DNA from: a virus
Lineage: Duplodnaviria; Heunggongvirae; Uroviricota; Caudoviricetes
DNA: 14,727 nt
Reading direction: 5' to 3' (one strand)
Virus record (IMG/VR): IMGVR_UViG_651053023_000012
Span: 1 to 14,727 of that record
The notes below the pieces were generated by a model. The model saw only the letters and a program-made list of their open reading frames with translations. It had not been told where the DNA came from and did no database searches. Shown here piece after piece: positions 7,278 through 14,727 of the stretch. The first letter of the stretch is position 1, and the number at the start of each line of letters is the position of its first letter. Made by a program: the position numbers and the translations under genes.

Positions 7278-8405
7278 TCATGCTTTCCACTTCAGGACAC
7301 CCGAATTTCTCGCGTGCATTAAAAAACGAATCAGCAACAACAGCTGGCTGCCGTGTTTTTCTTCAAAATCTTTTACCCCGGCGTGCAGTTCGTTATGACA
7401 TTTACGGCACAGCGGAATAACAAACAAATCATCAGCCTTTGTTCCCATCCCTCCCAGTCCATGACCAATGATGTGATGCGGATCATCTGCCTGATTACCG
7501 CACGTCATGCATTTCTGCGTTTTTACCCAGCGCGTGTATACAGGCATCTCTTCCCGTTGTGGTTTCTGGCGCTGGAGATACTGAGCCGGTGACTCCGGAT
7601 CAACGGCAATGCTTACCACCGTCTTTTCCTGTGGCGGGTTTTGCTGGTGGGCGTGAGGCAGCGGCGCAAGATTTTTTGTGCGCTGCTTCAGTATGCTGGT
7701 GGCGGTCTGCTCTCCCGGCACGATGTCGCTTTCACGGTACATTGAGCGGATTTTTTCCGCACGCAACCCCAGCGAACGACGTAATACCGCTTCCGGTAGC
7801 GCGTCCGCCACCTGATTGCGGACCGCCCACCAGGATAATTCAGCCAAAGATAATTCACGCTCCTGCGTACCGCTTATTGCGTGACCGATGACGTCAATCA
7901 TCCATGCTGACAGGTTTTGATGAGCAAGTTGCTCGAGTGATTCGGATGTCTGGTCACGTAGCTGGTTGTCGCAGTGCCAGCACAACACCATTGCGCCGGT
8001 ACCATAACAGTGAATGACGGTTTCGCTGTGATGATAATCGCCGTGTGGCCACTGGCAGGATTTAATATGGCGCAACAGCCAGTCAGACAATGCACCAGCA
8101 CCACCAGCAGCACGAATCACCCGTGCGTTACTGAAAAACGGCAGCAATGTTTTGTCTTCCACCAGCGGCTGGCGAGCGGCAGGGACGACTCCGGACGGCA
8201 GACCGCGCATGCTTTTCGGTTCAGGCTCCACCAGCACTCGAGGGTTATGAAATACTTGCATGGATTCACGGCCCGGCCTAAGGACAACCAGCCCAAGTTC
8301 CGGTACCAGAACAGGTCGAAGTAATATCCGCACGTTACCTCCAGATCCGTTGCTGGTATGTGCGGGATGGGCGCGGTGGGCGTTCGGAATAAGGGAGCCT
8401 GACAT
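7278..8405 (-). CDS. DUF968/YdfU-like prophage protein with a C-terminal zinc-finger, HNH-like motif. Start is uncertain (alternative ATG at 8259-8261).
   Basis: C-terminus CMTCGNQADDPHHIIGHGLGGMGTKADDLFVIPLCRKCHNELH. Further Cys/His pairs sit in the middle (HCYGTGAMVLCWHCDNQ). Its position between rusA and hok matches Qin-type prophage order as recalled. Confidence 0.6.
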   Translation of the reverse strand: MSGSLIPNAHRAHPAHTSNGSGGNVRILLRPVLVPELGLVVLRPGRESMQVFHNPRVLVEPEPKSMRGLPSGVVPAARQPLVEDKTLLPFFSNARVIRAAGGAGALSDWLLRHIKSCQWPHGDYHHSETVIHCYGTGAMVLCWHCDNQLRDQTSESLEQLAHQNLSAWMIDVIGHAISGTQERELSLAELSWWAVRNQVADALPEAVLRRSLGLRAEKIRSMYRESDIVPGEQTATSILKQRTKNLAPLPHAHQQNPPQEKTVVSIAVDPESPAQYLQRQKPQREEMPVYTRWVKTQKCMTCGNQADDPHHIIGHGLGGMGTKADDLFVIPLCRKCHNELHAGVKDFEEKHGSQLLLLIRFLMHARNSGVLKWKA

Positions 8406-8613
8406 AGATTATCCAGTGACGATAATCGAGGCTGAGGGCTTTCTTAACCTCGTATCCGCGCCTGCGGTAACACTGAATTATCCATTCCGCCTGCTCTTCA
8501 GTGCATGGAGGATGCTGGAACCAGTCTGATTTGAATACGTGAAAACGCCGTCCGCGCCTGCTGGCAAAGACGGCAGAATCATTAGAATTGTGTAATTTGG
8601 TATCGTGCGCCAT
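8335..8613 (-). CDS. Hypothetical protein (~93 aa from MAHDTKLHNSN...), overlapping the annotated 5' end of the DUF968-like ORF.
   Basis: Open reading frame only; the Shine-Dalgarno is weak. A longer start at 8694 would fall inside the terminator at 8685-8710. No family recognised. Confidence 0.3.
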   Translation of the reverse strand: MAHDTKLHNSNDSAVFASRRGRRFHVFKSDWFQHPPCTEEQAEWIIQCYRRRGYEVKKALSLDYRHWIIYVRLPYSERPPRPSRTYQQRIWR

Positions 8614-8684
8614 CGGTTGTCTCTGCTGGCGCAGCAGGTGCCAGTTGTTCAGGCTGGCGTGCGTATTGTAAACCAGAATGCCAG

Positions 8685-8710
8685 AAAAAAACAAAACCCG
8701 CCGAAGCGGG
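8685..8710 (-). terminator. Intrinsic terminator (minus strand) downstream of the lipoprotein gene.
   Basis: Minus strand: CCCGC-ttcg-GCGGG followed by TTTTGTTTTTTT. Confidence 0.55.
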
Positions 8711-8840
8711 TATGCTAAAACAAACTGAAGGTAATATGCCGGACTTGTAAAGGAACGATAGAATAATTATCGGATTAAATCCTGACTCAATCCATAGGAT
8801 TTACAGCGTTTTCACTAATAATTTACCGTCCCGCTATACA

Positions 8841-9233
8841 TTACTGCCCAGTTTTAACGAAGTTTTTAAAGGAAACAATTGCCTGATAGGGGTTTGGTTG
8901 ACAGCCAAACATATTATCGCAAAAAGGCTTGATGAAAATTCTTGCGGATCCATCTTCATTTGGCATTTTACTCACTTGATAAGCGAGGAATGGGCTATTT
9001 GGTGAAGGGTTATAAGTGGAAATTAGCGTGTTTGTCGCCGTTTGAATTTTCCATGAGGAATTATTAGCCAACCAGAATTGCGCTCGTTTCCAATAAAAGT
9101 CACATTGCTTTTCATCTTTACATGTTAGTGGCTTCATTGCTTCTGCTTTCAACGCTGGATCGACCTTTGCTGCACACCCTCCCAACATTACTGTTGCAAT
9201 CATTACACCTACGACTAAAACAAGTTTCTTCAT
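8841..9233 (-). CDS. Lipoprotein of unknown function (AT-rich moron).
   Basis: Signal peptide MKKLVLVVGVMIATVMLGGC with a lipobox L-G-G-C. The coding sequence is visibly AT-rich. GGGAG lies just upstream of the ATG. Confidence 0.7.
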   Translation of the reverse strand: MKKLVLVVGVMIATVMLGGCAAKVDPALKAEAMKPLTCKDEKQCDFYWKRAQFWLANNSSWKIQTATNTLISTYNPSPNSPFLAYQVSKMPNEDGSARIFIKPFCDNMFGCQPNPYQAIVSFKNFVKTGQ

Positions 9234-9290
9234 CTCCCTGCCCCATCAATAAAAGTTCGGTTCTCTAATAACTAGAGTTAATCAACGGAA

Positions 9291-9308
9291 AAAACGCCGA
9301 AGCGGGTT
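9291..9308 (-). terminator. Weak candidate terminator downstream of hok.
   Basis: Minus strand: CGC-c(UUCG)g-GCG short stem with a UUCG tetraloop, followed by T6. Confidence 0.35.
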
Positions 9309-9376
9309 AAGTGCGGGTGCGTTGAGGATGCCTGACACATCAGAGGTGGCGAGGGATTTCTCCCCCGCCAGGTCTC

Positions 9377-9532
9377 TTACTCCTCAGGTTCGTAAGCTGT
9401 GAAGACAGCGACCTCCGTCTGGCCGGTTCGGATTCGTACCTCGCAGAGGTCTTTCCTCGTTACCAGTGCCGTCACTATGACGGTTAAACAGATGACGATC
9501 AGGACGATTAACATCGCCTTTTGCTGCTTCAT
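9377..9532 (-). CDS. hokD: Hok/Gef-family type I toxin (HokD/RelF-like), 51 aa.
   Basis: MKQQKAMLIVLIVICLTVIVTALVTRKDLCEVRIRTGQTEVAVFTAYEPEE matches HokD as I recall it with a single substitution. GGAG sits 9 nt upstream of the ATG. Confidence 0.9.
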   Translation of the reverse strand: MKQQKAMLIVLIVICLTVIVTALVTRKDLCEVRIRTGQTEVAVFTAYEPEE

Positions 9533-9740
9533 AGCCTGCTTCTCCTTGCCTTTCGGCACGTAAGAGGCTAACCTAGATTTGCCGTTCATAGATTGAGCCT
9601 CAGATTAATGTTAAGCGTCTTGCAGGACGCGTAATGTTAACTGGGGCTTTTCTCTATCTGCCTTTGGTGTTCATGCCTGAGACAGATAGCCTCAAGCACC
9701 CGCAGCCATTCTACTTAACTCCCGTTACCTCGCCAATATG
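9533..9740 (-). promoter_or_regulatory. hok mRNA leader region (expected site of the mok frame and the antisense Sok RNA in hok/sok-type loci); boundaries are approximate.
   Basis: Inferred from hok/sok locus architecture. An in-frame upstream ATG at 9587-9589 gives a 70-codon frame. I could not map the sok promoter by eye. Confidence 0.35.
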
Positions 9741-10156
9741 AAATCAGTCAGAAAGGCGATCCATAAGAACAACAGCAAGGCAATAAATTGCCATTACAGC
9801 AGCAATAGCCAGCGCACATTTGAGAACCAGCACCACAACCTCCTGTATTGGACGTACACCAGTCCTGATAAATATGAGGCTGTCTCGTCAGTGATTCAAT
9901 ACAACTATTGGGTATAGTTTCTGTGATTTTGTTCTGTAGAAATGGAACACAACAACCAGTCACCACCAGCACTTCTTTAAATACGCCAAGTCCGACGCAA
10001 GCTAACCTTCTAGTCCGCTTTGAGCGAAAAGCAGACTGTCACGCGTTGAAGTTAATTGTATTACTTAGATAAACACTATCATTTTCCTGACGTTAAGTTG
10101 TATCTTTGATAGGATTAAAAAACGTATAGATAGCTTATGCTACTGAGGGAATAAAA

Positions 10157-10966
10157 ATGACGAAAATTAGTGAACGATGGAAGCACAATGGCATTACTGA
10201 AGGTTATTGCAATATTTGTGGGAAATATGGCTTGCTCACAAAAGATCATGTTCCTCCAAAGTGCGCCATAACCTTAGGCCCTGTTTTGCAGAAAACAGTT
10301 AGCGAATTTTTTGGTATTCAGGAACCAGTTAAACCATTAAATGCTAAAAATGGCTCTTATTTCAGAACCATTTGCAGCCACTGTAACAATAAGGTATTAG
10401 GTGGGCTCGATGTTGCAATTGAAAATGTAACAAAGTCCTTTAAAGAACAGTTAAGGCGATATATGAATGGTATGAATGTATATCCATTCATTAGAATACC
10501 TTTTGATAGCATATCTTTCACTAAGGCTATGATTGGGCACGTGCTATCAGCAACTTCAGTTGAAGATTGTAAAAAAGAACCCGTAGATAGCCCCTTCTAT
10601 ACACCTTTAAAGGATTATGTTTTGGGTAAAAATTCAAGTTTTGAGGAAACTCATGATATTTACTACTGGTTTTACCCACACAGAATGCACATATCCGCTC
10701 AAAGTGTAGCATTTATGAACGAAGGACATGTGGCATTTATTTGTGCTTTACATTTTTTCCCTATCGGTTTTATTATCACAATGAAAAATGAAGGAACATA
10801 CCCTGCCCACTCTACAAAATTAGAACTTGAAGATAAATTCCTTACATTTAATATGACCTCTATAAATTATGAGTATACGACATTTCCATTTGTAAATCTT
10901 AAGGGAAACCAAATGTATGCGATAAGCAACGGTCATACTTGTGTGAGTTATCCAATAATTAAGTGA
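10157..10966 (+). CDS. Protein with an N-terminal McrA-type HNH nuclease motif and a ~185-aa C-terminal domain of unrecognised family; candidate defence/toxin cargo or free-standing homing endonuclease.
   Basis: CNICGK-x8-DHVPPK-...-N-...-CSHCNN within the first ~80 aa. GAGGG lies 7 nt upstream of the ATG. The gene is visibly AT-rich and on the opposite strand to all neighbouring phage genes. Confidence 0.7.
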   Translation: MTKISERWKHNGITEGYCNICGKYGLLTKDHVPPKCAITLGPVLQKTVSEFFGIQEPVKPLNAKNGSYFRTICSHCNNKVLGGLDVAIENVTKSFKEQLRRYMNGMNVYPFIRIPFDSISFTKAMIGHVLSATSVEDCKKEPVDSPFYTPLKDYVLGKNSSFEETHDIYYWFYPHRMHISAQSVAFMNEGHVAFICALHFFPIGFIITMKNEGTYPAHSTKLELEDKFLTFNMTSINYEYTTFPFVNLKGNQMYAISNGHTCVSYPIIK

Positions 10967-11112
10967 CGGCTAAATCATACAATCTACGCATGTTCACTTT
11001 CTACATATACCATCTATAATGTCCGCTGTTGGCACAAAGCGGACAACCACGCTAGCTCTACCCTGTGCCACAAAAAGTCAATTTGCATCTGAACTAATGC
11101 ACTTGAATCTCG

Positions 11113-11535
11113 TCACTTCAATAAATACCGAACATCCCCCTGATAAAACGACAATATGCGCTGCATAACTTCACTCTTCCGGCACTCGCGACAGATTATG
11201 TTCTGACGCCTGTCGTAGCGACGTATTTCTCCGTCAGGTAATGACCAGATAAGGTCCGAATCAACCGCAGATGGTTTCTTCAGCTTTGCCCTTGAGAGCT
11301 TTTTACGGGCATTTTGCCAGTCCTTACGCGCCTGTTCAGACGGGAATAACCCGTAACCAGAGTTGTATACATCGCCGCTGGCAACCAGCTCTCTTGCGAG
11401 AACGCTCATCAGATATCTTGTCGCACCTGTTTTGACTTCCAGTTGCCGTAACGTCTCACGCCCACTCTGGCGTACGAGTTCAACAACCTGCCCTTTAATT
11501 TTTTCTCGCTCTTCTTGTGTAAAAACTTTTGCCAC
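11113..11535 (-). CDS. Hypothetical protein, possibly DNA-binding (HTH-like N-terminus); last gene of the replication operon. GTG start.
   Basis: The GTG at 11533-11535 is preceded by AGGAGG with 4-nt spacing. Translation is MAKVFTQEEREKIKGQVVELVRQSGRETLRQLEVKTGATRYL.... No Walker motif, so it is not DnaC-like. Confidence 0.55.
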   Translation of the reverse strand: MAKVFTQEEREKIKGQVVELVRQSGRETLRQLEVKTGATRYLMSVLARELVASGDVYNSGYGLFPSEQARKDWQNARKKLSRAKLKKPSAVDSDLIWSLPDGEIRRYDRRQNIICRECRKSEVMQRILSFYQGDVRYLLK

Positions 11536-11575
11536 AAGTCCTCCTGAAAATTACCTCATGACCAGAAATCAACAC

Positions 11576-12646
11576 TTACCCCCTGAAGCCCGGTGGAATT
11601 TCGGTATCCGGTTCAGAAATATGATTCACACAACGCTGGTTGTTCGTGCCGCTTACCGGGAGCAGCCAGGGGTTTTCAAAATTCCGGTCCGGTCCAAAAA
11701 ACGTCGTCGCTCGCTGAACAAATTCCGTTCCCGTTTTCCCGGTAGCCGCAAGGTATCTTGCGTAACGCCTCACGCCATCCAGCATGGCCTCTGGTGACAC
11801 CCCCTCGCGTAATCTGGCCTTCCAAGCACTGAAAGCGGATTTCTTCGGGTTTGCCCCAGCACGCAACGGGTATTCCCGCCAGACCTGTTCGAACACATCC
11901 GGATAATCCACTCGTCCCACAGGCTGCCCGGTGTTTTCCGGGACTACCCGATCGGCTTCCCGCTGAATGGCGGAATCGGCTTCAGGCTGCTGCAGTTGGT
12001 GTGATTGCTCCGGCCTTGCGGTCATCACCTGCTGCACAGCGCCCGAATCGGCTTTCAGCGCATACGCTGAATCGGCTTCCGGTGTCGTGCCTGCTGGCTG
12101 ACCAAGATTGACGGTCTGAACATCCCCTGCCTGGTTCGTGGCGTTTTTTACGCCATGGACCATAGTGTTTTGATCTTCTTGATCTGTATCTTTATCTGTA
12201 TCTTTATCTGTCGTGACTCGTCGTGACATGTGCGTGACATTTCGTGACGCGCCGTGACAATCGCCATTTTGTTCCCGCTTTCTTTCCCTCTCTCGCTGCG
12301 CCCTCTTGCGCTCTGCAGGAGATTTTGCGGTTTGCGAAATATTGCCGTTGTCCTCTTTAAGCACCTGGCGTTTTTCCCATCCAGTGATTAAATCACCATC
12401 AAGTACCCGCCCCTGCATCGTCTGCAAAATTGAATCAATTACCTCTTCTGTCACGTCGAGCGCACTTGCCAAATCTTCTGTCGTGACATCAATGTGACCT
12501 CGCGTGACATTTCGTGACGCGCTCACCAGGAGGTGGATATACACTGCCATCACTGTTGCAATTGGCTGCCCTGACACCCTGGCAATTGTTCGCCACTTAG
12601 GGTCATTTGGCATGTCATGCCATAATCTGAGCCAGGCGTTAGCCAT
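11576..12646 (-). CDS. Putative phage replication initiation protein (YdaU/O-like) with iteron arrays embedded in the coding sequence.
   Basis: The ATG at 12644-12646 is preceded by GAGGTG. It sits downstream of the Cro-like and YdaT-like genes, as in Rac. Two clusters of GTGAC repeats with 10-11 bp periodicity lie inside the gene. Confidence 0.6.
   Translation of the reverse strand: MANAWLRLWHDMPNDPKWRTIARVSGQPIATVMAVYIHLLVSASRNVTRGHIDVTTEDLASALDVTEEVIDSILQTMQGRVLDGDLITGWEKRQVLKEDNGNISQTAKSPAERKRAQRERERKREQNGDCHGASRNVTHMSRRVTTDKDTDKDTDQEDQNTMVHGVKNATNQAGDVQTVNLGQPAGTTPEADSAYALKADSGAVQQVMTARPEQSHQLQQPEADSAIQREADRVVPENTGQPVGRVDYPDVFEQVWREYPLRAGANPKKSAFSAWKARLREGVSPEAMLDGVRRYARYLAATGKTGTEFVQRATTFFGPDRNFENPWLLPVSGTNNQRCVNHISEPDTEIPPGFRG
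12211..12260. repeat. Iteron-like array A: five GTGAC cores at 10-11 bp spacing, preceded by a 12-bp tandem repeat (tctgtatcttta, two copies) at 12182-12205.
   Basis: tcgtgactcg tcgtgacatg tgcgtgacat ttcgtgacgc gccgtgacaa. It shares the 21-mer gcgtgacatttcgtgacgcgc with array B. Confidence 0.5.
12481..12520. repeat. Iteron-like array B: four GTGAC cores at 10-11 bp spacing, plus an inverted core at ~12450.
   Basis: tcgtgacatc aatgtgacct cgcgtgacat ttcgtgacgc. Confidence 0.5.
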
Positions 12647-12717
12647 ACTCACCTCTTCTGATACCGAATCTTTTTACTCACGAGTTGCCGGAAGTGATTC
12701 GATATGGCTATTATCAC

Positions 12718-13143
12718 TCAATGCACTGCCACAGCATTTCCTGCCGGGCCACCACGGTTCATCTGATTGAAACCGGCGATTGCCACTGCGACAAAATCAT
12801 CAGCGTCTCTCACCAGTCGCTCCCGCGTCTCCACCAGCTCCCGAAAATAAGCTGAACTGTGGCTGCGCATTCTGGCCACCAGCAAAGGTGGCATTGCCTT
12901 TTCGATCGCTGGTAACAACGCCTGAATTTTTTCAACTGCATCAGGGGTGTCTTTCTCTACCCAGCGGAAAATTTTCTGGGTATTGCGAGCCAGGGCTTCC
13001 GGATGGCTGTCGTCATACAGTTCTGGGAACATCATACCCAACTCAAAATAAGCCTGGGTTATTCCAGCCGCCGGAACTTTTTCGCCATCAGGACGCGCCC
13101 AGGCATTCATCGCCATGCGGATGTGTTCATGCTTGATTTTCAT
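12718..13143 (-). CDS. YdaT-like protein (proposed CII-analogue/toxic regulator in Rac-type prophages).
   Basis: The N-terminus MKIKHEHI matches what I recall for YdaT, and the size is ~140 aa. It overlaps the upstream Cro-like gene by 17 nt, as a ydaS-ydaT pair would. Confidence 0.6.
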   Translation of the reverse strand: MKIKHEHIRMAMNAWARPDGEKVPAAGITQAYFELGMMFPELYDDSHPEALARNTQKIFRWVEKDTPDAVEKIQALLPAIEKAMPPLLVARMRSHSSAYFRELVETRERLVRDADDFVAVAIAGFNQMNRGGPAGNAVAVH

Positions 13144-13408
13144 GAATCAAGCTCCTAGAAAGTGGTTGTGTTAACGTTTTGGTATCTTCCAGCTCGGGCC
13201 AAATATTCATCCAATCAAAAGGCCTTAGTTGCTGACGTGTAACTTCACCATTACTGGCTCGCTCAATAAGGACGCATAACGATGCCCCTAACACTTGACC
13301 TTTACTCAATGCCTTTCTTAGATAACCGATGCTGGTACCACACTCGCATGCAAACATACGCTGTTCATCTGACGAAAGAGAATTGAGAAATATTCTTAAT
13401 TCTTCCAT
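13127..13408 (-). CDS. YdaS-like HTH protein (Cro analogue), first gene of the rightward early operon.
   Basis: AAGGAG Shine-Dalgarno. HTH segment CGTSIGYLRKALSKGQVLGASLCVLIERASNGEVT. It is divergent from a repressor gene, with operator repeats between them. Confidence 0.7.
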   Translation of the reverse strand: MEELRIFLNSLSSDEQRMFACECGTSIGYLRKALSKGQVLGASLCVLIERASNGEVTRQQLRPFDWMNIWPELEDTKTLTQPLSRSLIHENQA

Positions 13409-13436
13409 AGCTACTCCTTAGTAAACACAGTAAAGA

Positions 13437-13480
13437 ATACCCACAGGTAAACAAAAGTCAATACCCACAGGTTGTTTACC
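13437..13480. promoter_or_regulatory. Operator-like repeats in the divergent repressor/Cro intergenic region (OR-like).
   Basis: ATACCCACAGG occurs twice (13437-13447 and 13461-13471), with an inverted pair ggtaaaca/tgtttacc. The same ATACCCA half-site recurs in the palindromes at 13971-14008. Confidence 0.45.
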
Positions 13481-13508
13481 TTGCGGTAATCGCATCTATT
13501 ATTTACCT

Positions 13509-13928
13509 ATGGACAAATATGAATTTAGACGACAGCAACTCATCAAAATTCGTGATGAGAAATGCGATGGTAAAGCGGTTAACGTGGCCAGAAAGATCGG
13601 GCGCGAGCCTTCTTATGTATCAAGAATGTTGTACCCAGAGGGGAAAAAGGGAAAAAAACGGATCGCTGATGATATGGTGGAGATTATCGAAGAGTCCTTT
13701 GGGTTACCCCGGGGATGGATGGATGGTATCGTTTCATCATCAACGAACACAGCCTCCAGTTATGAAACAAGGGTTCTAACGCCACGACAACGTATTTTTT
13801 TAGATCTCTTAGACGAACTGCCAGAAAGTGAAGCGGATAACTTATTAAAAACTCTTGAAGAGAAAAAACAGTATTACAATATGATCTACGAAGAAATCCG
13901 TAAAAAGAAAGCACAAAACGCATCATAG
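13509..13928 (+). CDS. Prophage repressor (RacR-like, XRE-type HTH, no obvious S24 peptidase domain).
   Basis: HTH segment AVNVARKIGREPSYVSRMLYPEG. There is no Shine-Dalgarno upstream of the ATG, so the transcript may be leaderless as for lambda cI from PRM. The gene is divergent from the Cro-like gene. Confidence 0.65.
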   Translation: MDKYEFRRQQLIKIRDEKCDGKAVNVARKIGREPSYVSRMLYPEGKKGKKRIADDMVEIIEESFGLPRGWMDGIVSSSTNTASSYETRVLTPRQRIFLDLLDELPESEADNLLKTLEEKKQYYNMIYEEIRKKKAQNAS

Positions 13929-13970
13929 CTCACCAAACAACTAGTCACCAGTTAAGACACCGCAAAAAGT

Positions 13971-14008
13971 TACCCATGGGTATTTACTTTTTAAATACCT
14001 ATGGGTAT
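13971..14008. promoter_or_regulatory. Operator-like palindromes downstream of the repressor gene (OL-like), upstream of the leftward early genes.
   Basis: Perfect 12-bp palindrome TACCCATGGGTA (13971-13982) and imperfect ATACCTATGGGTAT (13995-14008), 25 bp apart. Confidence 0.45.
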
Positions 14009-14193
14009 CCTTCTTTTCATACCAACCCACCCCGCCCCACAGAATGCAGGGCAATACTTCGAGTTACCAGGCAGTGGTCAGGGGTTAAGTAGCCAGCCCG
14101 AGGCGTAAGAACATGACGGCAGGGTTCAACTTTAATAACTATGCAGCAGGTTTTTGTTCCGCTACCCCAGCGTTAAGGGGAAATGAGGTCAGC

Positions 14194-14349
14194 ATGGATA
14201 CTATCGATCTTGGCAACAACGAATCTCTGGTGTACGGCGTGTTTCCCAACCAGGACGGCACGTTCACCGCGATGACGTATACCAAAAGCAAAACGTTTAA
14301 AACCGAAAATGGTGCCCGTCGCTGGCTGGAAAGAAACTCAGGTGAGTGA
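14194..14349 (+). CDS. Small protein, YdaF-like (51 aa).
   Basis: ATG at 14194 preceded by GAGG. Translation MDTIDLGNNESLVYGVFPNQDGTFTAMTYTKSKTFKTENGARRWLERNSGE matches my recollection of Rac YdaF (memory only). Confidence 0.55.
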   Translation: MDTIDLGNNESLVYGVFPNQDGTFTAMTYTKSKTFKTENGARRWLERNSGE

Positions 14350-14350
14350 T

Positions 14351-14479
14351 ATGGATTTCGACACAATCATGGAAAAGGCTTACGAAGAATACTTCGAAGA
14401 CCTTGCCGAAGGCGAAGAAGCTCTCAGCTTCAGTGAGTTTAAACAGGCGCTTTCCAGCTCGGCAAAATCTAACGGCTGA
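14351..14479 (+). CDS. Small acidic protein, YdaG-like (42 aa).
   Basis: ATG one nt after the preceding stop. Translation MDFDTIMEKAYEEYFEDLAEGEEALSFSEFKQALSSSAKSNG. It is below the ORF-track cut-off; assignment is from memory. Confidence 0.45.
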   Translation: MDFDTIMEKAYEEYFEDLAEGEEALSFSEFKQALSSSAKSNG

Positions 14480-14508
14480 TAAGCGAAGTAGCACCGCGAG
14501 GAATCAGT

Positions 14509-14727
14509 ATGCAGAAACGAGAACCCGTCATAATCGCGCCAGACTATACCGATGATGAACTTTATGAGTGGATGCGCCAGAAAATTAATGCAGCGCAGGA
14601 TCTGAAATGGGCTAATGAAGCCAGGGCTAAGCAGGCTGAAAATCTGTCCGCTCTGGAGCAGGATATCACCAATCTGGAAAAAGCAGCGGCATTAAGCATT
14701 GCCAGAATGATTACATACCCGCGTTAA
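14509..14727 (+). CDS. Hypothetical early-left operon protein (72 aa); its stop coincides with the window end.
   Basis: Open reading frame in the same operon orientation as the YdaF/YdaG-like genes. No recognisable motif. Confidence 0.45.
   Translation: MQKREPVIIAPDYTDDELYEWMRQKINAAQDLKWANEARAKQAENLSALEQDITNLEKAAALSIARMITYPR

Follow-up and report, generated by a model that had tools for sequence, protein, structure and literature searches.

A type I toxin-antitoxin cassette of the hok/sok family (hokD/hokW subgroup) in a lambdoid prophage of Escherichia coli: element map and comparison with described systems

Introduction

Two experimentally described systems related to the locus considered here are hok/sok (parB) of plasmid R1 and hokW-sokW of Sakai prophage 5 (Sp5; VT2-Sakai), and it is only for these two that Hok toxicity, Sok instability, RNase III cleavage of the duplex and 3' exonucleolytic processing have been shown (PMC9841398 and PMC8621323, respectively). 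hokW-sokW has been demonstrated experimentally to be a type I toxin-antitoxin (TA) system with a Sok RNA of approximately 71 nucleotides (nt) (Takada et al. 2021, PMC8621323), and the sokW RNA, 71 nt complementary to the 5' untranslated region (UTR) of hokW, was detected by Northern blot (PMC8621323). In R1, the upstream frame mok is offset by 58 nt and lies in the +1 frame relative to hok, and it is the translation of mok, not the Mok product, that matters (PMC9841398). Here we describe a related locus in a 14,727-nt stretch of viral DNA (Caudoviricetes; IMG/VR virus record IMGVR_UViG_651053023_000012, positions 1 to 14,727), referred to below as the window, in which an initial annotation had marked positions 9377-9740 as a hokD-like type I toxin locus.

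We consider the segment 9736-9289, read on the minus strand, to be very probably a complete hok/sok-family type I TA cassette of the hokD/hokW subgroup, lying within the nin-like region of an Escherichia coli lambdoid prophage of the Qin/Rac type. This copy is an ordinary, previously annotated member of a textbook module and is in that sense already known: a segment of the E. coli EC416 chromosome (NZ_AP027404.1) matches the window with 100% identity, and RefSeq names the coding sequence (CDS) there hokD. Its discovery value is therefore small, since hok/sok is textbook material, most E. coli genomes contain hokD/hokW-type copies and this very sequence already carries an annotation. RefSeq marks only the CDS for 51 amino acids (aa), and the value of the present map is one of annotation: it adds the promoter, tac, ucb, mok, dcb, fbi, sok and a weakened terminator, and it provides an example of a complete hokD-type locus beside the truncated K-12 reference.

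Extent and Setting of the Cassette

For the comparison, 80 IMG/VR prophage loci with close Hok relatives were fetched and 69 distinct sequences were aligned; the 67 homologues mentioned below are these 69 minus two K-12-type rows with a truncated leader, and the allele statistics refer to alignment A2, which holds 64 distinct alleles that are ~96% identical to each other. The 67 prophage copies closely match the window between the -35 box of the hok promoter (~9736) and a U-run (~9289), and on both sides identity collapses into unrelated flanks, so that the borders of the cassette are the hok promoter and the terminator. This confinement of identity indicates a cassette of ~450 base pairs (bp), larger than 9377-9740, that moves as a unit between differing flanks. 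Its membership in the family, the positions of all its elements, its predicted two-state fold and its conservation as a unit were established directly. The coordinates first assigned thus captured a real locus, but they cut off the 3' UTR with the fbi element (9315-9327) and the terminator (9289-9304).

Relatives of a 511-bp query are present in 4942 of 5426 complete E. coli genomes, at a median of 2 and a maximum of 10 places per genome, and also in 102 phage records, Stx phages among them. In EC416, the genes upstream of hok are dicB, ydfABC, a repressor gene, a frameshifted cro, YdaT and DUF977, and those downstream are DUF968/ydfU, rusA, Q, tRNAs, lysis genes and a truncated terminase. This gene order agrees with the proposed position between the replication genes and Q, that is, in the nin-like region. 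The host prophage looks defective, its cro being frameshifted and its large terminase truncated.

The hok Product, Its Leader and the mok Frame

The 51-aa product matches the Pfam family HOK_GEF (PF01848; 79.9 bits, cut-off 22, E 9.8e-23) and phrog_251, 'MokW-like host killing' (E 1.5e-32), and it is identical to the K-12-type HokD at 50 of 51 positions, the sole difference being A10V. The NCBIfam Hok subfamily models score under their own cut-offs (49.5 vs 73), though RefSeq calls the protein HokD. The designation as a hokD-like type I toxin is borne out by the Pfam match and by this near-identity to HokD. The leader (9701-9527, minus strand) fits the Rfam model RF01794 over its full length (positions 1-157; 110 bits, gathering score 59, E 9e-25). 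Although named 'sok', this model runs on the hok-mRNA-sense strand, from the 5' GGGUGCUUGAGG to the hok start, and the match therefore marks the leader with the Sok target, sok being encoded on the opposite strand. The 51-aa open reading frame (ORF), its Shine-Dalgarno (SD) sequence and the hairpin after its stop, all noticed by eye in the initial annotation, are thus real and beyond chance (Pfam E 9.8e-23; Rfam E 9e-25; fold z -6.6). Upstream the locus is complete, with the promoter, tac, ucb, the mok-equivalent ORF and the sok promoter all in place. The elements of the hok transcription unit are the following.

9708-9736, minus strand: hok promoter, from a consensus scan, with -35 TTGGCG (9736-9731), a 17-nt spacer and -10 TAGAAT (9713-9708)
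9289-9701, minus strand: predicted full-length hok mRNA, ~413 nt, with +1 at ~G9701 and its 3' end in the U-run
9690-9701, minus strand: tac (translational activator element), GGGUGCUUGAGG, invariant in the 64 alleles
9643-9649, minus strand: ucb, or anti-SD box, AAGCCCC, predicted partner of the mok SD region in the full-length fold and of tac in the truncated one
9598-9601, minus strand: mok SD, GAGG, aligned to GaGG of the Rfam model, invariant in the 64 alleles and under ucb in the full-length fold
9377-9589, minus strand: mok-equivalent frame, 70 aa in all, from AUG 9589 through 19 codons and then in frame through hok
9564-9569, minus strand: dcb, AGCCUC, predicted partner of the mok SD in the truncated fold
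9564-9601, minus strand: Sok-target hairpin of the truncated mRNA (ViennaRNA folds), joining the mok SD with dcb, with an apical loop at 9585-9578
9542-9547, minus strand: hok SD, AAGGAG, 9 nt before the AUG and near-invariant in the 64 alleles
9377-9532, minus strand: hok CDS, 51 aa, ATG 9532, stop TAA 9379-9377 (Pfam, phrog_251, RefSeq hokD)
9391-9394, minus strand: UACG at Tyr47, candidate site of TadA A-to-I recoding (Tyr to Cys), invariant in the 64 alleles
9348-9369, minus strand: GC hairpin of the 3' UTR, GGCGGGGGAG-AAAU-CCCUCGCC, 10 pairs in every computed fold
9315-9327, minus strand: fbi (fold-back inhibition element), CCUCAACGCACCC, 12 predicted pairs with tac and one bulged C
9289-9304, minus strand: terminator remnant, CCCGC-UUCG-GCG followed by U6, its 3' arm lacking the GG found in most alleles

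The -10 box of the hok promoter is 94-100% conserved in the 67 homologues, in which homology starts at the -35 box; position 1 of the Rfam model aligns to 9701 and the conserved block stops at ~9289, so that both proposed mRNA ends coincide with limits seen in the alignments. The SD of the 51-aa ORF, described as good from the outset, is indeed AAGGAG at 9547-9542, with an SD-AUG spacing equal to that of the R1-type plasmid copy. The in-frame upstream extension of 70 codons likewise proved meaningful, as it is the positional equivalent of mok, with its own GAGG at 9601-9598 and AUG at 9589, and it stays open across the hok SD and AUG with an offset of 57 nt and no stop between. The hok SD is near-invariant, the AUG is kept and the mok frame is open into hok.

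The mok geometry varies among the 64 alleles: 53 have mok in frame, in 7 mok has 19 codons and its UGA overlaps with the AUG of hok, and the Rac copy is in the +1 frame. All three arrangements carry ribosomes through the hok initiation region, which fits the R1 finding that mok has to be translated irrespective of its product. An out-of-frame mok had been entertained as an expected hallmark and was dropped, since mok is in frame in the fetched R1-like plasmid copy (L004) as well; with the 58-nt offset of R1 on the other side, the frame is not a defining feature. Note also that the same 70-codon ORF is annotated as 'gef homolog' in VT2-Sakai, and that the window allele may give rise to a 70-aa, N-extended form besides the 51-aa Hok.

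A-to-I editing at the position equivalent to Tyr47 has been stated for hokC/D/E (bioRxiv 10.1101/2025.08.07.668861), which makes the UACG of the window copy a candidate TadA site. Recoding of this tyrosine to cysteine would provide the second cysteine of a disulfide. In Sp5 hokW the context of Tyr47 is CUACGAA, which we take to resemble the anticodon loop of tRNA-Arg2.

Predicted Folding of the hok mRNA

The full-length mRNA has a minimum free energy of -162.2 kcal/mol, with z -6.6 relative to shuffled sequences (ViennaRNA). In this fold, 9701-9690 pairs with 9327-9315 (12 bp and one bulged C) and the mok SD region is the partner of ucb. When the RNA ends at 9345, 9340 or 9335, it adopts in each case a second state in which tac pairs with ucb (9701-9694 with 9649-9643) and the mok SD with dcb (9601-9596 with 9569-9564), the resulting hairpin carrying the mok AUG at its apex. 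In silico, the window sequence thus folds like the two-state scheme of R1, which was not imposed on the calculation (PMC9841398).

The GC-rich hairpin just after the stop had been proposed to be the fold-back element. The hairpin exists, but this role is rejected, since the 5' end pairs with 9315-9327 in every fold of the full-length RNA; the fbi element is found 20 nt further downstream. The location of the hairpin relative to the stop and to fbi agrees with that in the R1-type plasmid hok, and it is probably the counterpart of the stable stem-loop that forms the 3' end of the processed, translatable R1 mRNA. In the R1 paradigm, the Sok-target loop contains a YUNR U-turn motif. The predicted apical loop of the window (9585-9578) reads ACGGCAAA, without YUNR; the nearest such motif, CUAG (9576-9573), lies in the predicted stem.

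These folds are well conserved, with 95.6% of the cells paired in alignment A2 versus ~40% in slid controls. Pairing of the tac-fbi helix is 100% across the 64 alleles, the only changes being from G-C to G-U, while the alleles of the GC hairpin show one-sided pair changes at 339/352 (GU/AU/GC). As the alleles are ~96% identical, such statistics show conservation, not covariation. The R1-type plasmid hok forms the same closing helix from different bases, GGCGCUU with AAGCGCC.

The sok Gene and Its Hypervariable Target

The initial annotation had left open, by eye, whether a sok gene is present. At the level of sequence the answer is yes, as the promoter in the window is identical to, and indistinguishable from, that of the validated sokW, and an antisense RNA can be placed downstream of it. 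The corresponding features, together with a variable patch that overlaps them, are as follows.

9546-9574, plus strand: sok promoter, from alignment to the R1-type plasmid and sokW, with -35 TTGCCT (9546-9551), a 17-nt spacer and -10 TAACCT (9569-9574)
9581-9651, plus strand: predicted Sok antisense RNA of ~71 nt with putative ends, consisting of a single-stranded 5' tail, a long hairpin and a U-rich 3' end
9575-9597, minus strand: hypervariable patch of 23 nt, comprising mok codons 1-5, the target loop and the complement of the Sok 5' tail

The sok promoter was placed by alignment to the R1-type plasmid, which has TTGCGC-17-TATCCT at this position, and to sokW of Sp5, whose promoter region is identical, as well as by means of published mutagenesis primers; a generic sigma-70 consensus scan missed it (below threshold). 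The 'pro-less' primers used for sokW turn TAGGTTA into CCGGCTC, which is precisely the shared -10 box, and the antitoxic effect was lost (PMC8621323). If it starts at G9581 and stops in the U-run 9648-9651, the Sok RNA would be 71 nt long. Its predicted fold has a free 5' tail, a long terminator-like hairpin and a U-rich run (-33.3 kcal/mol, z -5.8), and it begins with nucleotides complementary to the apical loop predicted for the target hairpin.

The 5' tail of Sok is the recognition element in the R1 paradigm, and it is here that the cassettes differ most. Diversity (pi) in the patch reaches 0.291 per site, versus 0.03-0.06 elsewhere in the leader and 0.008 in hok, and 18-21 patch alleles, about six of them common at similar frequency, are found in otherwise ~96%-identical cassettes (loci L005-L208). 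The patch alleles also differ in mok geometry, being in frame, with a UGA/AUG overlap, or in the +1 frame. As one stretch of DNA encodes both Sok and its target, cognate pairing survives any change in the patch, and cross-pairing with other copies may be lowered. The patch could accordingly be a balanced polymorphism of approximately six mutually divergent alleles that specify orthogonal Sok specificities for co-resident prophages, with drift of the patch among the three mok-hok geometries being free because only the translation of mok matters. We regard this as a tentative proposal, with the chances somewhat against it. Same-genome pairs comprised two with different patch alleles and one with identical alleles, and these three informative pairs are too few for a test; moreover, the remainder of Sok is conserved, and cross-pairing between copies could persist. 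If true, the proposal would amount to addiction 'immunity groups' among co-resident lambdoid prophages, and the allele comparison thus raises the question of whether the patch creates non-cross-reacting antitoxins among the prophage copies of one genome.

Proposed Mechanism and Alternative Readings

From the homology with R1 hok/sok and Sp5 hokW-sokW we infer the transcript ends, the 3' processing, the instability of Sok and the toxicity of the window copy, as well as its biological role. On this model, the weak hok promoter would produce a stable minus-strand mRNA of ~413 nt, in which the 5' tac is clamped to the 3' fbi and ucb covers the mok SD, so that translation would not take place. Slow trimming from the 3' end, as far as the GC hairpin (9369-9348), would remove fbi, upon which tac would take up ucb and the mok SD would shift into a hairpin with dcb. 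As long as the short-lived plus-strand Sok (~9581-9651) is present, the trimmed mRNA would be bound by it and destroyed; once Sok is gone, the trimmed mRNA would be translated from the mok AUG at 9589, and ribosomes passing the hok start would produce the membrane-depolarizing 51-aa Hok. The cassette could serve prophage addiction or, as for hokW, aid lysis upon induction.

Several points weigh against a complete and working cassette. The terminator stem is weakened: most alleles finish with CCCGC-UUCG-GCGGG-U5 (-11.8 kcal/mol), whereas the window has a 3-bp stem (-3.1 kcal/mol), and a terminator scan of the window did not detect this remnant. Transcription may continue into the lipoprotein ORF (8841-9233), and the kinetics at the 3' end of the mRNA may be altered. 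The GG was lost because the junction with the downstream lipoprotein moron lies inside the 3' arm. This junction is present in 249 of 5426 E. coli genomes, which makes it a stable variant and not an error, and as the functional hokW is without a consensus terminator altogether, the weakened stem need not be disabling. The -10 box of sok, TAACCT, agrees with the consensus at only 3 of its 6 positions. Within the hokD group there is little covariation, with double changes in 6 pairs, none of them in tac-fbi. The chromosomal hokA, hokB and hokC did not bring about post-segregational killing when studied earlier (summarized in bioRxiv 10.1101/2025.08.07.668861).

The locus might accordingly be an intact-looking chromosomal relic that is functionally silent, either because the mRNA is never activated or because Sok always wins, and that contributes nothing to host or prophage. 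The apparent defects of the prophage (cro and large terminase) and the weakened terminator would suit such a relic, as would the behavior of hokA, hokB and hokC, for which activation by rifampicin was likewise not seen (bioRxiv 10.1101/2025.08.07.668861). We nevertheless judge it unlikely, in view of the low diversity of the hok CDS (pi 0.008) and of the conservation of all regulatory elements in the 64 alleles despite turnover of the flanks, and also because hokW-sokW, at 93% identity, functions as a TA system and has a phenotype, and chromosomally expressed R1 hok is toxic without Sok (PMC9841398). A different question is whether the toxic product is the 51-aa Hok at all, or instead a 70-aa in-frame Mok-Hok fusion made without true two-cistron translational coupling. 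The mok AUG is indeed in frame 57 nt upstream of hok with no intervening stop, RefSeq calls the in-frame hokC counterpart 'toxin MokC', and the VT2-Sakai annotation has the 70-aa ORF only. Yet the strong, invariant hok SD AAGGAG and its AUG have been retained, and sister alleles with identical hok have mok ending in a UGA/AUG overlap (7 alleles) or lying in the +1 frame (Rac), so that the 51-aa product must suffice; in R1, mok is also in another frame and its translation, not its product, is what matters (PMC9841398). A fusion as the toxic species is therefore improbable to about the same degree as a silent relic, and a separately initiated 51-aa Hok from an intact cassette remains our preferred reading.

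It had also been suggested that hok and the divergent gene beside it, then described as an HNH gene, form one toxin/defense-like island. The two genes are adjacent and divergent, with 416 bp between hok and the 269-aa ORF (10157-10966), and the family of the latter retains an HNH-like CxxC..DH..CxxCN motif. The identification as an HNH gene could not be sustained, in that neither an HNH profile nor the beta-beta-alpha-metal fold was matched: Pfam, NCBIfam and PADLOC gave no hit for the ORF, and PDB no structural match. The ORF belongs to a PHROG of unknown function, and its relatives are labeled 'chaperonin' or 'metal-binding protein' in the sources. As for the island, the 269-aa gene is within 2 kb of hok in 0 of 102 other cassettes, homology between loci breaks exactly at the hok promoter, and hok was not enriched beside defense systems in a published survey. 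A functional island is thus very hard to credit, and the lack of linkage in 102 loci points to coincidental insertions in a mosaic region or hotspot.

Neighboring Genes and Other Observations

The ORF downstream of hok (8841-9233, minus strand) begins 56 nt past the hok U-run and encodes a 130-aa lipoprotein-like product with the lipobox LGGC (phrog_16082), which shows a weak N-terminal likeness to the Cor superinfection exclusion protein; this lipoprotein gene lies downstream of hok in only 2 of 99 other cassettes. On the other side, an unannotated 29-codon ORF (9744-9844, minus strand; strong SD AGGAGG 9844-9839, GTG 9833, TGA 9746-9744) ends 8 nt before the hok -35 box and encodes a single hydrophobic helix, (M)LVLKCALAIAAVMAIYCLAVVLMDRLSD. 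It is kept in 13 IMG/VR loci that share the flank, with ~6 synonymous and 4 conservative non-synonymous changes, and has no family hit. Elsewhere in the window, Rfam models detect a full-length IS009 element (41-239, minus strand; 230 bits) and three tRNA genes (4675-4981, minus strand); for EC416, the RefSeq annotation has two tRNAs (Ile and Arg) immediately after Q. We also would like to mention one prophage contig (L147 / L045; IMGVR_UViG_2778261316_000001) with apparently two hok loci ~3.3 kb apart, one a complete cassette and the other a K-12-like leaderless hokD.

Comparison With Known Systems

hokW-sokW of Sp5 occupies the same lambdoid nin-region position as the window copy and is 93% identical to it in nucleotide sequence over the cassette, the Hok proteins sharing 46 of 51 residues. 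Both have identical tac, ucb, mok SD, sok -35 and -10 boxes, hok SD and fbi, as well as the same in-frame 70-codon ORF. They differ in the allele of the Sok tail and target loop (CTATGAACGGCAAATC in the window, CCATGCTGAACACATG in Sp5) and in the C-terminus of Hok (TAYEPEE versus VDYESEK in HokW). Sp5 is wholly without the CCCGC-UUCG-GCGGG terminator of which the window has a shortened version, and the prophage carrying the window copy looks defective, unlike Sp5.

More distantly, R1 hok/sok (parB) shares with the window copy the order of its elements and the predicted tac-fbi closure, and its leader fits the same Rfam model as that of the window; in R1-type loci the SD spacings are the same and the sok promoter likewise lies over the hok translation-initiation region. 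The Hok proteins are ~44% identical, a figure reported for HokW. In the window, mok is in frame at an offset of 57 nt instead of in the +1 frame at 58 nt (PMC9841398), the Sok hairpin is 16 nt longer owing to an insertion relative to the Rfam consensus, and the sok -10 box is TAACCT, against TATCCT in the R1-type plasmid copy. The chromosomal hokC/mokC (gef) is 82.7% identical to the window in nucleotide sequence over the CDS region. PGAP names this counterpart mokC, 'toxin MokC'; mokC has an in-frame N-terminal extension of 19 codons. It sits at a core-chromosome site and not in a prophage, and the copy examined is flanked by an IS element.

The comparison with hokD (relF) of the K-12 Qin prophage shows best what the window has preserved. 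The Hok proteins agree at 50 of 51 positions, the 3' UTR, fbi and terminator region are homologous, and both copies belong to the same prophage family and lie at the same place upstream of the ydfU/DUF968 gene and Q. The K-12-type hokD (L003), however, is homologous to the window only from ~20 nt before the hok AUG, as relBE there replaces the promoter, tac, ucb, mok start and sok -10 box, all of which are kept in the window. A K-12-type relBEF architecture, with hok directly after relBE and no leader or sok of its own, was considered for the window as well and does not apply, the leader being full. Thus, relative to the truncated K-12 hokD, the window keeps every regulatory RNA element of the model system, the terminator being weakened, and it combines a HokD-like protein allele with the ancestral, complete architecture of the locus.
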